Of a stretch of DNA of 63,902 bases, positions 6,848 to 12,008 are shown piece by piece (the first letter of the stretch is position 1; the number at the start of each line of letters is the position of its first letter). The stretch is from Planctomycetota bacterium. Lineage in GTDB: Bacteria; Planctomycetota; MHYJ01; WSZJ01. Under the pieces are notes generated by a model, which saw nothing but the letters and a program-made list of their open reading frames with translations, did no database searches and was not told the DNA's origin. A program made the position numbers and the translations under genes. Where the stretch lies: positions 1 through 63,902 of the forward strand of contig JBBTCT010000042.1 of assembly GCA_038060895.1 (NCBI GenBank), written 5' to 3'.

Positions 6848-7321
6848 CTACGCCTTCGGGGCTTCGCCTTCCGGGGCCGCAGCCGGCGTCACCGCCGCAG
6901 CGTCCGTCCTCGATGCCTCGGCCACCGCAGCCTGCTCCGCCTCCGCCTGCTTCTTCGCCGCAACCTCCTGCTGCCGCTGAACCCAGGCGTCGCGCTCCAC
7001 CGACTTCTTCTTCCGGTCCTCGTCCTTGCGCTTCCGCTCGTCGTCGATCTTCTTCGCCTGCTCTGCGATCTTCGCCTTGCGGACGTCATCTTCCTGCTTC
7101 TTCTTCGCCGCGACCGCTCCCTCCGTCTTTTCGTACTTCTTCTTGAAGCGATCGACCATGCCCGCCGCGTCGAGCAGCTTCTCCTTGCCCGTGTAGAAGG
7201 GATGGCAGGCGGAGCAGATTTCCACGGCGATGCGTTCCTTCGTCGAACGCGATTTGAACGTGTTTCCGCACCCGCACACGATGGTGCAGTCGACGTACTT
7301 CGGATGGATGTTGGCCTTCAT
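6848..7321 (-). CDS. rpmE: 50S ribosomal protein bL31 (Zn-type) with long C-terminal extension
   Basis: [30 protein letters not shown]; about 85 extra Lys/Glu/Ala-rich residues. Confidence 0.93.
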
Positions 7322-8042: not shown

Positions 8043-9209
8043 ATGGTTACAACGCGCCACATCAAGGCCAGGGCCGGCGACGTCCTCGTGCTTCTCGGGA
8101 CCAGCAAGGGAGCCTTCGCGCTCCGCTCCGACGCTTCCCGGAAGAAATGGGATCTCGGCGGACCCTACTTTCCCGGTCACCAGATCTACGCCCTCGCCTT
8201 CGACAGCCGCGCCGGCCGCAACCGCCTCTGGGCCGGCGCCCAGAGCGGCCACTTCGGCGCCATGCTCTCCTCCTCCGACGATTTCGGCCGCACCTGGACG
8301 AAGCCCGAGAAGCCGAATGTTCGCTTCCCCGAAGGGTCGGGCGGCGCACTGAAGCAGATCTGGCAGATTCATCCCGGGCCGGTGGGGGAGCCGGAAGTGC
8401 TGTACTGCGGCGTCGAGCCGAGCGCCCTGTTCGTATCCCGCGATGCCGGCGAGACCTGGGAGCTGAACCAGGGATTGTGGGACCATCCGCACCGGGCGAA
8501 ATGGGAGCCGGGTGGGGGCGGGCTCTGCCTTCACACGGTCGTTTCCGGCGAGGGCGGGGGACTGAACATTGCGTGCTCCACCGGTGGCCACTACCGAAGC
8601 GACGACGGCGGCCGGTCCTGGAATGCGCGCAACAAGGACATCCACGCTCCCTTCATTCCAGGCAACCCCGCCCCCGAATTCGGGCAGTGAGTGCATAAGG
8701 TCGTGCGGGCGCCGGGTGCGCCTGCCCGCCTCTACCTCCAGCATCACTGGGGGGTGTATCGCAGCGATGACAACGGCGACAACTGGAAGACGATCGAGAA
8801 GGGGCTCCCGACCACCTTCGGCTTTGCGCTTGCGGCGCATCCGCACGACGCCGACACGGCGTACGTCCTGCCGATCGAGTCGGACGGTTTCCGGTGTACG
8901 CCGGAAGGGAAGCTTCGGGTTTATCGAACGACGGACGGTGGGAAGATGTGGAGGCCGCTGACGAAGGGGCTCCCGCAGGCGAATGCGCTGGAGACGGTTC
9001 TGCGCGATGCGATGGACACCGACGCGTGCGCGAAGGCGGGCGTCTATTTCGGCACGAAGAGCGGCAAGGTCTACGCTTCAGCAGACGCCGGGGACAGTTG
9101 GAAGTGCGTCGCCGACGGTCTGCCGACGGTTTACTGCGTGAAGGCGGGGATCGTGGGCGGAAGGGTTGCTGTGAAGAAGGCGGTCGCCAGGAAACGTGGC
9201 AGGAAATAG
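8043..9209 (+). CDS. BNR/Asp-box beta-propeller (sialidase-like) protein with in-frame TGA (8688-8690), putative selenoprotein
   Basis: Two track ORFs join in frame as PEFGQ-TGA-VHKVV. Asp-boxes (SDDFGRTW, SRDAGETW, SDDGGRSW, SDDNGDNW, TTDGGKMW, SADAGDSW) occur on both sides of the TGA. SD GGAGG upstream. Confidence 0.85.
8705..8725 (+). promoter_or_regulatory. Candidate bacterial SECIS hairpin
   Basis: Stem GCGGGCGC/GCGCCTGC (8 bp, one G-U), loop CGGGU with 22 nt between UGA and loop. Confidence 0.6.
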
Positions 9210-9259
9210 GACGAATCGGCCCCCGGGCGCGATCCGGCGCCCGGGGCCGACTCTTCTCC

Positions 9260-9538
9260 ATGATCGTCTTCCTGATTCCCGGCTACCTCCGGCCATTCAC
9301 GGGTCACCGCCGATCCGTCGAAATCCCGGCAGGCCCGTGCACCGTGGGCGAGGCGCTCGACGCCGTTGGCGCGCAATTCCCGGGCGTCCGGGAGCGCGTC
9401 CTGCTGGAGACGGGCGAAGTTCGCCAGCACGTGAACATCTTCGTGGGTGCGGAGAGCATCCGGTACACCGGCGGGCTGGGGACGCCGGTCCCGGACGGCG
9501 CGGAGATCTCGATTCTCCCGGCGGTTTCGGGCGGGTAG
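9260..9538 (+). CDS. MoaD/ThiS-family ubiquitin-like (sulfur-carrier) protein
   Basis: 92 aa, TVGEALD, HVNIFV, ends in ILPAVSGG. Confidence 0.92.
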   Translation: MIVFLIPGYLRPFTGHRRSVEIPAGPCTVGEALDAVGAQFPGVRERVLLETGEVRQHVNIFVGAESIRYTGGLGTPVPDGAEISILPAVSGG

Positions 9539-9617: not shown

Positions 9618-9983
9618 ATGAAGGCATTCCTCGCCGTCACCAAAGCCCTCTCGGACGAAACCCGCGTCCGCGCCCTTCTGTCTCTTCGAGAAGGCGAGCT
9701 CTGCCTTTGCCAGATCATCGAATTCCTCAAGCTTGCACCGTCCACGGTCTCGAAGCACATGGACCTCCTTCTCAAGGCCGGCCTCGTCGAGCGGCGAAAG
9801 GCAGGGCGCTGGCATTACTTCCGCCTTGCAGGGCGGGGAATCGGCGCGGAATCGCAGCGGACGCTTCGGTGGGTGCTCGATTCCCTGAAAGGCGAGCGCA
9901 GCGTGAAGGACGACGCCCGCGCGCTCTGCTGCGTCCGCAGAAAGGACCTCGAGGAGGTGAGCGCATGCTACCGGGCCGACTGA
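9618..9983 (+). CDS. arsR: ArsR/SmtB-family repressor
   Basis: KALSDETRVR, ELCLCQI, STVSKH, GRWHYFRL. Confidence 0.92.
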   Translation: MKAFLAVTKALSDETRVRALLSLREGELCLCQIIEFLKLAPSTVSKHMDLLLKAGLVERRKAGRWHYFRLAGRGIGAESQRTLRWVLDSLKGERSVKDDARALCCVRRKDLEEVSACYRAD

Positions 9984-10411
9984 AGGTCCTCTTCCTGTGC
10001 ACCGGCAATTCCTGCCGCAGTCAGATGGCGGAAGGGTGGGCGCGCCGGCTCAAGGCGGATTCCATCGAGGCGTACTCGGCGGGGATCAAGGCGAGCGGCC
10101 TCAACGCGGAGGCGGTCCGCGTGATGGCGGAAGCGGGGGTGGACATTTCCGGGCAGAAGTCGAAAACGGCCGAGGCTCTCCGCGACGTGGCGTTCGACTA
10201 CGTCGTGACGGTGTGCGGGAACGCGCACGAGACCTGCCCCGTGTGGCTCGGGAAGAAGGCGAAGGTCGTTCACGCGGGATTCGACGATCCGCCCGCGCTG
10301 GCGCGGCGGGCAAAGAGCGAAGGGGAAGCGCTGGAGATTTACCGGAGGGTCCGAGACGAGATTGCGACATTTGTCCGGAGCCTGCCTGGCGCATTGACGG
10401 AACGCCCGTAA
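9965..10411 (+). CDS. arsC: Thioredoxin-type (LMW-PTP fold) arsenate reductase
   Basis: VLFLCTGNSCRSQMAEG, VTVC..ETCP, FDDP; SD GGAGG. Confidence 0.92.
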   Translation: MLPGRLKVLFLCTGNSCRSQMAEGWARRLKADSIEAYSAGIKASGLNAEAVRVMAEAGVDISGQKSKTAEALRDVAFDYVVTVCGNAHETCPVWLGKKAKVVHAGFDDPPALARRAKSEGEALEIYRRVRDEIATFVRSLPGALTERP

Positions 10412-10427
10412 CAAAAGGAGGCAGATC

Positions 10428-11303
10428 ATGGGTTGCTGCGACGAACCGAAGCCGGACTACAGGAAGGTCGGGAAGGACATTCACGAGCAGGTACGCGACG
10501 GGTACGCGAAGATCGCTTCGACCGGGGTCCTTTCCACCGCGACGACGCCGCACGGCGGCGGGTGCTGCGGCGGCGTCAGCGCCGAGGACCTGGCCACGCA
10601 GATCGGTTACTCGGCAGACGAGATCCGCGCCCTGCCCGAGGGCGCGAACATGGGTTTGTCGTGCGGCAATCCGACCGCGATCGCCAATCTTAAGCCCGGA
10701 CAGGTCGTCCTCGACCTCGGCTCCGGCGGCGGTTTCGACGTCTTCCTTGCGGGCCCCAAGGTCGGCGCGACAGGACGCGTCATCGGCGTCGACATGACGG
10801 CCGAGATGCTGTCGAAGGCGCGGCGCAACGTCGCCGCCTACCGCAACCGGACCGGACTCGACAACGTCGAATTCCGCCTCGGGGAAATCGAGCACCTGCC
10901 GGTCGCCGACGCGAGCGTTGACGTCGTGATCTCCAATTGCGTCATCAACCTCTCGCCCGACAAGCCCGCCGTCTGGCGCGAGATCGCCCGCGTCCTCAGG
11001 CCCGGCGGCCACGTCGCCGCTTCCGATATGGCCCTCCTGCGACCGCTGCCCGCGTCGGTCGTGCAGATGGTCGAAGCGCTGGTTGGCTGCGTCGCGGGCG
11101 CGGTGCCGGTCGAGGAGTACTGGTCCATGATCGAAGCGGCGGGGTTGGCGGACATTTCGCTGCGGCCGAAGCCGGAATACGTCAAGTCGCTCTCCGATGT
11201 CCAGGACCCGCTCTACAAGGAAATCCTGAAAGCCCTCCCCGCGGGAACTTCCGCAGCGGATTTCATCACCAGCATCGACGTGACGGCACACAGGCCGCGC
11301 TGA
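10428..11303 (+). CDS. arsM: Arsenite methyltransferase
   Basis: [42 protein letters not shown]. Confidence 0.93.
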
Positions 11304-12008
11304 ATGTCCTTCACGACCGCGATGCCCGAAAGCCCCGCGACTCCTCTCTCCCGCGCCGCCGCGGCCGAAGGAATCGGCACGGCGTTCCTGCTCGTGGCGA
11401 TCGTCGGGTCGGGCATCATGGGCGAACGGCTATCGGGCGGAAGTGTCGGCCTGGCGCTGCTCGCGAATTCGCTCGCGACCGGCGCAGCCCTGATGGCGCT
11501 CGTGGCCGCCTTCGGGCACGCCTCGGGCGCGCACTTCAACCCCGCGGTCACCCTGGTCGAGGCCTGGCGCGGCGCGCTGAAGTGGCCCGCGGCCGCGGCG
11601 TACGTCTCGGCGCAGTTTGCGGGAGCCATGGCCGGTGTGGCTGCCGCCCACGGAATGTTCGGGGGCGCCGTCTTTCGCGTCTCGCTGACCGCGAGGACGG
11701 GCGCAGGCCAGTGGTTCGCGGAATTTGTCGCCACAGTGGGATTGCTGGGGATCATTCGCGGGGTAAGCGCCTCCAGGTCGCTGCTGGCGCCCGTGGCCAT
11801 CGGCGCCTGGATTGCGGGGGCCCTCTGGTTCACGGCCTCGACGTCGTTCGCGAACCCGGCCGTCACGCTGGCGCGCTGCTGGACGGACACGTTCGCGGGA
11901 ATCCGGCCGCTGGATGCTCCGGCGTTCATCGTCGCTCAACTCGCCGGCGCCGTCGCCTCGGCGTTGCTTTGGCCCAGGGTCTTCGGTGAGAAGCAGGTCG
12001 CGGCCTAG
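11304..12008 (+). CDS. MIP/aquaporin-family channel (probable arsenical efflux)
   Basis: SGAHFNPAVT and SFANPAVT NPA motifs; last gene of the ars operon. Confidence 0.9.
   Translation: MSFTTAMPESPATPLSRAAAAEGIGTAFLLVAIVGSGIMGERLSGGSVGLALLANSLATGAALMALVAAFGHASGAHFNPAVTLVEAWRGALKWPAAAAYVSAQFAGAMAGVAAAHGMFGGAVFRVSLTARTGAGQWFAEFVATVGLLGIIRGVSASRSLLAPVAIGAWIAGALWFTASTSFANPAVTLARCWTDTFAGIRPLDAPAFIVAQLAGAVASALLWPRVFGEKQVAA

Follow-up and report, generated by a model that had tools for sequence, protein, structure and literature searches.

A gene for a seven-bladed Asp-box β-propeller, located in a 63,902-nucleotide stretch of Planctomycetota DNA (the window; GenBank assembly GCA_038060895.1, contig JBBTCT010000042.1, positions 1 to 63,902), carries an in-frame TGA and is very probably a genuine selenoprotein gene, with UGA216 decoded as selenocysteine (Sec, U) by the organism's own SelA, SelB, SelD and tRNA-Sec. 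We are equally confident that Sec216 stands in for a Cys that is invariant among the close homologues of a large cytoplasmic family of such propellers. The adjacent gene encodes a small ubiquitin-like protein of the ThiS/MoaD type that ends in Gly-Gly (GG), and the two genes probably constitute a dedicated two-gene module. The propeller frame opens with an ATG at 8043, whose Met1 is nearly invariant in the homologue alignment, and runs for 388 codons to a TAG at 9207–9209, with the TGA at 8688–8690 as the sole in-frame stop. Six Asp-box motifs, spaced 49–55 residues apart, end at Trp85, Trp139 and Trp193 on the 5′ side of the TGA and at Trp248, Trp303 and Trp353 on its 3′ side. An earlier note on this DNA had described the 388-codon frame with its single TGA at 8688, the Asp-box blades on both sides of it and a next gene of 92 residues ending in GG, and all three descriptions were borne out. 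The propeller matches the Pfam models BNR (45 bits against a cut-off of 27), Sortilin-Vps10 and BNR_2, while NCBIfam release 20 holds no dedicated or fitting model for it, and no signal peptide was found on the protein.

Comparison with homologues revealed that the TGA falls on a Cys codon. A search of 5.8 billion proteins returned at least 7829 relatives, and the best 120 of these (59–81% identity), once aligned, all have Cys at the position of codon 216, within the nearly invariant motif P-E-F-G-Q-C-V-H-K. This invariance holds for the close homologues; a large sister subfamily has Asp at the site. Within Planctomycetota, 170 of the 401 genomes searched contain a family member. We aligned 64 loci of the phylum, namely the 30 best loci, 20 loci flagged for a TGA and 14 further TGA-flagged loci, and codon 216 itself is TGA in 5 of the 30, 15 of the 20 and 0 of the 14. 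Residue 216 is accordingly Sec in 20, Cys in 29 and Asp in 15 of the 64 loci, a ratio that gives no frequency of Sec because two of the three sets were chosen for a flagged TGA. The Sec forms are spread over 16 genomes and 10 families and include two same-genus orthologues of the window gene (86% and 70% identity) as well as a second Sec paralogue in the window's own genome (C1:187608–188726). In a quick maximum-likelihood tree of 60 members, they occupy at least three places, with at least four Cys/Sec changes on well-supported branches.

The decoding machinery is present in the genomes concerned. The own genome contains selA, selB, selD and a tRNA-Sec gene, each scoring above its curated cut-off, and selA is above its cut-off in all 15 other genomes that hold a Sec-form propeller. 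The own selD gene (G000:C2:48628–49548, minus strand, locus L010; G000 is the own genome) has an in-frame TGA in the motif SCAG-U-ASKLG, so the selenophosphate synthetase is itself a selenoprotein, which is a known case. Beyond the phylum, 109 of the 301 Acidobacteriota genomes searched hold a family member; 19 TGA-flagged Acidobacteriota matches and one from Candidatus Eisenbacteria all proved to be Cys forms in which the flagged TGA is an ordinary stop, the scan for Sec outside Planctomycetota being confined to these 20 matches, with about 15 flagged ones and the other phyla left aside.

It could be argued that a sequencing error or a nonsense mutation produced the TGA, or that it is a genuine stop dividing the propeller into two products, since the codon immediately after it, GTG at 8691, is a formal restart codon and the hairpin of the window is not significant when taken alone. 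The letters themselves are secure: contigs from two other sequencing runs span the TGA and differ from the window at no position, one (run X2) covering 8043–9247 and the other (run X3, from another study) covering 8541–8743. As these contigs read TGA, and not TGC, TGT or TGG, the codon is no assembly slip. Purifying selection acts on the half of the gene that follows the TGA. When the window gene is compared with its nearest orthologue (locus L021), codon differences that are synonymous only and those that change the amino acid number 55 and 19 downstream of the TGA and 77 and 32 upstream of it, and in six other sequence pairs the downstream half likewise evolves like the upstream half. A restart after the TGA is not conserved among the Sec forms, the following codon being GTG in 15 of 20 and GTT, GTC or GTA, none of them a start codon, in the other 5. 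A break at this point would moreover fall inside the most conserved motif of the protein, and 20 loci from 16 genomes would have to share it at this very codon. A broken gene or an artefact is thus highly improbable and close to refuted.

The RNA that follows the codon was analyzed for a selenocysteine insertion sequence (SECIS). The earlier note had reported an 8-bp hairpin with the loop CGGGU. This hairpin is real, with a stem (8705–8712/8718–8725) of 8 pairs including one G-U and a loop (8713–8717) placed 22 nt after the TGA, but its energy does not go beyond chance. Among 17 other Sec forms (the sister clade and one same-genus orthologue), a common helix CCCGGC-GGN-GCCGGG starts 20 nt after the UGA. 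Its 6 bp are paired in 102 of 102 cells and show compensatory double changes in two pairs (C-G to U-A and C-G to A-U); as a control, sliding the partner strand by 1–3 columns left pairing in only 24–54% of the cells. The mean folding energy of the stretch after the codon is −15.0 kcal/mol in 20 Sec forms compared with −9.8 kcal/mol in 27 Cys forms, although the sequences are related and the test therefore overstates the difference. The window and the orthologue L021 have a hairpin different from that of the 17 forms, with the loop one codon nearer to the UGA. At the hairpin these two proteins read RAPGAP, where most Cys homologues read (Q/R)HP(S/A)RP, a departure that is expected if the RNA constrains the codons. 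Taken alone, the hairpin of the window is a plausible candidate SECIS. Three observations count on the negative side. The energy of the window hairpin is within chance for a stretch of 79% G+C (z −0.6, and z −1.1 for a 79-nt fold). An Rfam scan of 8600–9300 matched no family, giving only a chance-level microRNA hit (E 0.99). Finally, a metatranscriptomic contig (run X8) spans only 9246–9528 with no differing letter, covering the GG gene and none of the propeller gene; as DNA can occur in such libraries, this contig is a hint only for transcription of the GG gene.

To place the propeller among known folds, we compared it with solved structures and family models. The closest solved structure is PDB 3b7f (profile E 3.6e-98 over residues 8–370; phmmer 8.6e-71), a structural-genomics entry (YP_299179.1 of Ralstonia eutropha) titled "Glycosyl hydrolase, BNR repeat". 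Homology to the window protein covers the full length, and His is kept at positions 164 and 218, whereas Asp replaces Sec216 and Lys replaces Cys162, 3b7f being a member of the Asp-type subfamily. In a 2009 survey, 3b7f is described as a seven-bladed Asp-box propeller with one uninterrupted stretch of Asp-boxes and is placed under the family "Not known" (PMC2716378). Clustering at 50% identity leaves the family with 2326 representatives at E ≤ 1e-30, and databases name its members sialidase, exo-alpha-sialidase, glycosyl hydrolase BNR repeat or photosystem-assembly factor.

These names raise the question whether the protein is a glycoside hydrolase in which the Cys/Sec is incidental. Besides the source names and the title of 3b7f, partial matches to GH74 xyloglucanases (E 1e-9 to 1e-12) and a BNR_2 score above the cut-off (36.6 against 31.4 bits) could be taken in this sense. 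The GH74 matches, however, extend over only 100–200 residues and are confined to Asp-box blades, BNR_2 is a repeat-type model, and the score against the glycosylhydrolase model NF045728 is 61.2 bits, far below the cut-off of 175. Sialidases, GH74 xyloglucanases, Ycf48/HCF136 and the Vps10 domain of sortilin have the Asp-box propeller architecture in common with the window protein, but only the repeated blades match, below the family-specific cut-offs. Those proteins are secreted, lumenal or membrane-linked, whereas the window protein would be cytoplasmic: it has no signal peptide, and in related proteins the propeller is fused to a kinase through a membrane-free linker, which puts the domain in the cytoplasm. 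Its gene is also paired with a sulfur-carrier gene and not with sugar genes, and the 2009 survey leaves 3b7f under "Not known". Considering the cytoplasmic location and the restriction of the glycosidase matches to Asp-box blades, the propeller is likely no glycosidase, and a glycoside hydrolase with an incidental Cys/Sec is very improbable.

The partner of the propeller is a carrier-type protein with the C-terminus VSGG. It scores 42.3 bits against Pfam ThiS (cut-off 22.5, E 1.1e-10) and 58.4 bits against NCBIfam SAMP1, just under the cut-off of 60; against MoaD proper (TIGR01682), it reaches 13.5 bits and not the cut-off of 66.15. Its best solved relatives are CysO of M. tuberculosis (3dwg_C, 1.8e-15) and 4n6e_B. 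The intergenic stretch between the two genes folds into a G+C-rich stem-loop (9216–9250) of 14 pairs at −37.5 kcal/mol (z −5.2), and 0 of 200 shuffled sequences were as stable. A terminator scan called none at 9216–9250, and the stem-loop may serve the two-gene unit as a signal for processing, stability or attenuation.

The pairing of propeller and carrier is likely to be conserved both across phyla and across changes of gene order. The statement in the earlier note that the family neighbours MoaD-like genes was confirmed by locus comparison. Within Planctomycetota, the GG protein adjoins the propeller in 24 of the 30 best loci by phmmer and in 46 of 50 loci by profile. In one Cys clade the GG gene lies directly upstream, and in the Sec clades and the clade of the window directly downstream. 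A second set of 80 loci was drawn from Acidobacteriota, Gemmatimonadota, Candidatus Eisenbacteria, Verrucomicrobiota, Myxococcota, Planctomycetota and others, including candidate phyla. In this set the GG protein follows the propeller in 71 loci; 7 of the 9 exceptions lie on contigs that stop at the end of the propeller gene or shortly beyond it. Clustering of the open reading frames within 6 kb of the 80 loci revealed no other gene family in more than 9 loci, the remaining conserved frames being the propeller, the GG protein and their antisense shadow frames. Four of the clusters, checked by Pfam, correspond to a YCII-domain protein, an amidohydrolase, a radical-SAM protein and a MacB/FtsX permease; they occur in 5–9 loci each and look incidental. 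In seven loci from metagenome-assembled genomes of Pyrinomonadaceae, Blastocatellia and Chloracidobacterium (L062, L066, L067, L069, L072, L074 and L075), the gene between the propeller and GG genes encodes about 240 residues, including a YCII-related domain.

The own genome contains three propeller paralogues: the window gene, a Sec form of another clade and a Cys form. The second (G000:C1:187321–188726, locus L130) reads GT-U-VHKLI and has a GG gene directly downstream; the third (G000:C22:154871–155971, locus L161) is the Cys form and has no GG gene within 2 kb. Five ThiS-family genes were found in the genome, one beside MoaE (contig C36), one beside a JAB-type gene, one alone and one after each of the two Sec propellers. 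Some partner genes run past the GG by 3–157 codons (L021, L022, L130, L135, L136, L138, L141 and L142), and both partner genes of genome G229 do so; these extensions are either real or read-through artefacts of the stop-to-stop frames used.

Analysis of the repeat register indicated that the Sec site has a counterpart in the preceding blade. The sister motif LCLH with Cys162, pointed out in the earlier note, is present, and Cys162 lies at Trp139+23 just as Sec216 lies at Trp193+23. The motifs Cys162-Leu-His164 and Sec216-Val-His218 thus place their Cys or Sec and their His 23 and 25 residues past the Asp-box Trp, and each is followed by a hydrophobic strand. Because the offset from successive Asp-box Trp residues is the same, the two motifs occupy repeat-equivalent positions of neighbouring blades. 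Going by the usual build of propellers, they would stand at the start of the innermost strand, near the propeller axis. Conservation was counted over 80 diverse members, 20 of them Sec forms: Trp154, His164, His218, His235 and Arg321 are invariant (80 of 80), His148 occurs in 75 and Cys162 in 72, position 216 is Cys in 57, Sec in 20 and Asp in 3, and position 219 is Lys in 59 and Arg in 15.

A candidate activator of the carrier is encoded elsewhere in the genome. Among its three ThiF-family genes, none of which is near the module, the best is a rhodanese-ThiF fusion (MoeB-like) whose 409-codon frame is broken by a TGA at codon 309 (APG-U-NEAGVLG). The own E1-like activator of ubiquitin-like carriers thus looks like a further selenoprotein, judging from its reading frame. 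Its Sec presumably takes the place of the Cys that attacks the carrier in MoeB and ThiF. A two-domain rhodanese gene lies just upstream of it, and a thioredoxin-like gene lies downstream on the opposite strand. A MoeB/ThiF-type E1-like selenoprotein has been catalogued under PF00899 (PMC13188914). Like the propeller, it is a selenoprotein tied to the C-terminus of ThiS/MoaD-type proteins, and the own genome has such a TGA gene; its fold is unrelated to the propeller and it serves a different step.

We tentatively propose, at somewhat below an even chance, that sulfur or selenium is relayed by a Sec/Cys pair which sits at an axial pocket of the propeller and acts on the activated GG tail. Sec216-x-His218 and Cys162-x-His164, in equivalent places of two neighbouring blades, would line this pocket, where Sec216 and Cys162 would form a selenol/thiol pair. 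The carrier would be activated by an E1-like enzyme encoded elsewhere, for which the rhodanese-ThiF fusion with the in-frame TGA is the best candidate. The pair would then act on the adenylated or thiocarboxylated C-terminal GG tail of the partner and take up or pass on sulfur (or selenium) via a selenenyl-sulfide or acyl-chalcogenide intermediate; Cys162 would serve as the resolving residue, and the chalcogen would go on to a final acceptor. This relay is favoured because Cys and Sec have been exchanged repeatedly at position 216 and a second Cys stands at the pseudo-symmetric site, and because a CysO-like carrier and a Sec-bearing E1-like enzyme occur in the same genome.

Several observations weigh against the relay. 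The closeness of residues 162 and 216 and the geometry of a tail in the pocket come from the repeat register only. No E1, JAB or acceptor gene is conserved within 6 kb in the 80 loci of the multi-phylum set. Four loci of one Cys subclade (L043, L044, L046 and L047) and the own C22 paralogue have no GG gene within 1.5–2 kb. In the large sister subfamily that includes 3b7f, residue 216 is Asp and residue 162 is Lys or Gly, yet the GG neighbour is kept; it adjoins all three Asp-type genes of the 50-locus set (12 further Asp-type loci are among the flagged ones). The partnership thus does not need a chalcogen at this site. Asp-type proteins, 3b7f included, mostly read D-P-H-C, with a Cys three residues on. 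The invariance of His164, His218 and His235 together with the switching among Cys, Sec and Asp fits a metal site, and the fusion of a kinase to the propeller in other phyla fits a sensor better than a transferase.

The first of these two alternatives, a metal site, is unlikely, though less so than the other rivals. Residue 216 (Sec, Cys or Asp) would bind a metal or metal-sulfur centre at the axis together with His164, His218, His235 and possibly His148; the GG protein would deliver sulfide to the centre or dock there, and Sec would tune the metal as in other metal-binding selenoproteins. Ligands commonly switch between Cys and Asp, which is unusual for redox nucleophiles. The three His residues present in all 80 diverse members, His148 in 75 of them, the occurrence of all three residue types at position 216 among the 64 loci of the phylum and the GG partner retained by Asp-type proteins are consistent with such a site. 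Several metal-binding selenoproteins and the U-H motif of formate dehydrogenase are also catalogued (PMC13188914). However, no metal-binding family in Pfam or NCBIfam matches the propeller, and thiol/selenol redox pairs would just as typically show repeated Cys/Sec exchange and a second Cys at the pseudo-symmetric position.

Analysis of the multi-phylum set also revealed propellers with an N-terminal Ser/Thr kinase in 29 of the 80 loci (L079, L083, L084, L086 and 25 others). These fusions are about 700 residues long and are still followed by the GG gene. Their hosts are Acidobacteriota and single metagenome-assembled genomes of Gemmataceae, Verrucomicrobiia and Vicinamibacterales. All four fusions checked match Pkinase (E 1e-52 to 1e-54), and the kinase parts are closely related to one another (E 1e-94 to 1e-181), except for a partial one in L129. 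The linker between kinase and propeller is short and hydrophilic and contains no membrane segment. The propeller could on these grounds be a cytoplasmic sensor of redox state or of reactive sulfur or selenium species, or a platform that binds the ubiquitin-like protein, in which the fused kinase or, in the stand-alone forms, another partner would be switched when residues 162 and 216 are oxidized or the charged carrier binds. We consider this improbable: there is no kinase on the window protein or on any of the 20 Sec forms, and the many invariant polar residues resemble an enzyme pocket. Sec is also costly and is found elsewhere mostly in catalytic sites.

A further possibility is that the Cys/Sec-His pair handles the ubiquitin-like protein itself, either as a thiol protease or isopeptidase that trims residues past the GG or removes the modifier, or as an E2-like carrier holding it as a thio- or seleno-ester. 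The partner genes that run past the GG, the lack of a JAB gene nearby and the carrier's SAMP1 score of 58.4, close to the cut-off of 60, point in this direction. Most partners, including that of the window, end exactly at the GG, so that trimming is unneeded; the propeller has no similarity to known peptidase or E2 families in Pfam or NCBIfam; and the Asp-type subfamily has no nucleophile at position 216. This role is therefore quite improbable. Returning to the chalcogen relay in its widest form, the module could be part of an unrecognised ubiquitin-like thio-/seleno-carboxylate pathway in which the carrier tail enters the axial pocket, the chalcogen is passed on by the Sec/Cys pair, aided perhaps by a metal bound to His, and, in other phyla, the pocket is wired to a Ser/Thr kinase. 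We offer this picture as speculative and regard it as rather unlikely. Were it true, the propeller fold would gain its first selenoenzyme, and prokaryotic ubiquitin-like carriers a new class of user enzymes.

Coordinates of the features discussed (window positions unless a contig of the own genome is named)
Feature	Position	Strand	Basis
Asp-box (BNR) seven-bladed β-propeller gene, 388 residues with TGA as Sec	8043..9209	+	Frame, Pfam, 3b7f homology
TGA, codon 216, very probably Sec, context PEFGQ-U-VHK	8688..8690	+	Homologue alignment, recurrence, contigs of other runs
Cys162-Leu-His164 codons, sister CxH motif at the equivalent place in the preceding blade	8526..8534	+	Blade register
His218-Lys219 codons, right after Sec216-Val217	8694..8699	+	Conservation in 80 diverse members
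SECIS-like stem-loop (candidate), 8-bp stem, loop CGGGU, 14 nt from TGA to stem	8705..8725	+	Shared with same-genus L021
Strong intergenic stem-loop between propeller and GG genes, no T-run	9216..9250	+	Folding energy
ThiS/MoaD-type ubiquitin-like protein gene, 92 residues, ends GG, probable dedicated partner	9260..9538	+	Pfam ThiS
Rhodanese-ThiF gene	G000:C22:311324-312028 (locus L150 1108-2337)	+	In-frame TGA

Other genes surround the module. Right after it, on the same strand (9618–12008), lie genes for an ArsR-type regulator, a low-molecular-weight phosphatase of the arsenate-reductase type, an S-adenosylmethionine-dependent methyltransferase, which we take to be ArsM-like by its Cys-rich N-terminus, and an MIP channel. 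This cluster has no conserved link to the module within 6 kb in the 80 loci. Upstream of the module is a divergent DUF486 gene, and at 6848–7321 on the minus strand a gene that we read from the open reading frame list as that for ribosomal protein L31, with an apparent Lys/Glu/Ala-rich C-terminal extension of about 85 residues. The sequencing runs that hold the window stretch are labelled as groundwater or aquifer metagenomes. The organism is an uncultured planctomycete; for the release factor 1 encoded in the window, the best named relatives come from Planctomycetia, Planctomycetes and Candidatus Brocadiae metagenome-assembled genomes, at 76–86% identity.

Comparison with catalogued selenoproteins suggests where the propeller departs from them. 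A review of May 2026 lists 119 prokaryotic selenoprotein families or subfamilies in its Table 1 (PMC13188914). That table has no entry for a BNR, sialidase or propeller family, and propeller, sialidase, MoaD, glycosyl and Asp-box are mentioned nowhere in the article (PMC13188914); the supplementary lists of the underlying surveys, which lie outside this comparison, may include one. Our literature search found nothing on the propeller family as a selenoprotein or in connection with MoaD. Together with the missing NCBIfam model, this agrees with the earlier note, whose author did not know the family as one of selenoproteins. Like the catalogued selenoproteins, the propeller would combine UGA recoding with a candidate SECIS stem-loop downstream; most organisms have Cys homologues of it, and it has a second Cys close by (PMC13188914). 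Most catalogued families have thioredoxin-like folds with UxxC or CxxU motifs (PMC13188914), unlike the propeller of the window, whose two chalcogens lie 54 residues apart on repeated blades. What looks new is the selenoprotein family, its fold and the propeller as a user of a ThiS/MoaD-type carrier; the decoding machinery and the kind of carrier are known.

If the decoding holds, the catalogue gains a selenoprotein family on a fold that has no entry in its 2026 version. Sec marks residues that do chemistry and so points to the working residue of the propeller family, whose module spans Planctomycetota, Acidobacteriota, Gemmatimonadota, Verrucomicrobiota, Myxococcota and candidate phyla. Gene callers split the Sec forms in two, and propeller Sec genes are therefore mis-annotated wherever they are present. 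The natural variants of the site (Sec, Cys and Asp) and the kinase fusions are ready-made probes for experiments.

The module also resembles the sulfur-carrier systems CysO-CysM, BexX-CysO, MoaD-MoaE and SAMP1, which, like it, employ a small β-grasp carrier ending in GG; the nearest solved ones are CysO (3dwg_C) and the carrier of 4n6e. The own genome encodes a canonical MoaD-MoaE pair and a JAB-linked carrier apart from the module, and the carrier of the module scores below the SAMP1 and MoaD equivalog cut-offs. To our knowledge, the propeller belongs to none of the known folds of carrier partners (pyridoxal-phosphate enzymes, MoaE, ThiG-like proteins and PP-loop ATPases). As in those systems, a dedicated carrier is encoded beside its user enzyme while the E1-like activator is encoded elsewhere in the genome; unlike in any of them, the user enzyme here would be an Asp-box propeller.

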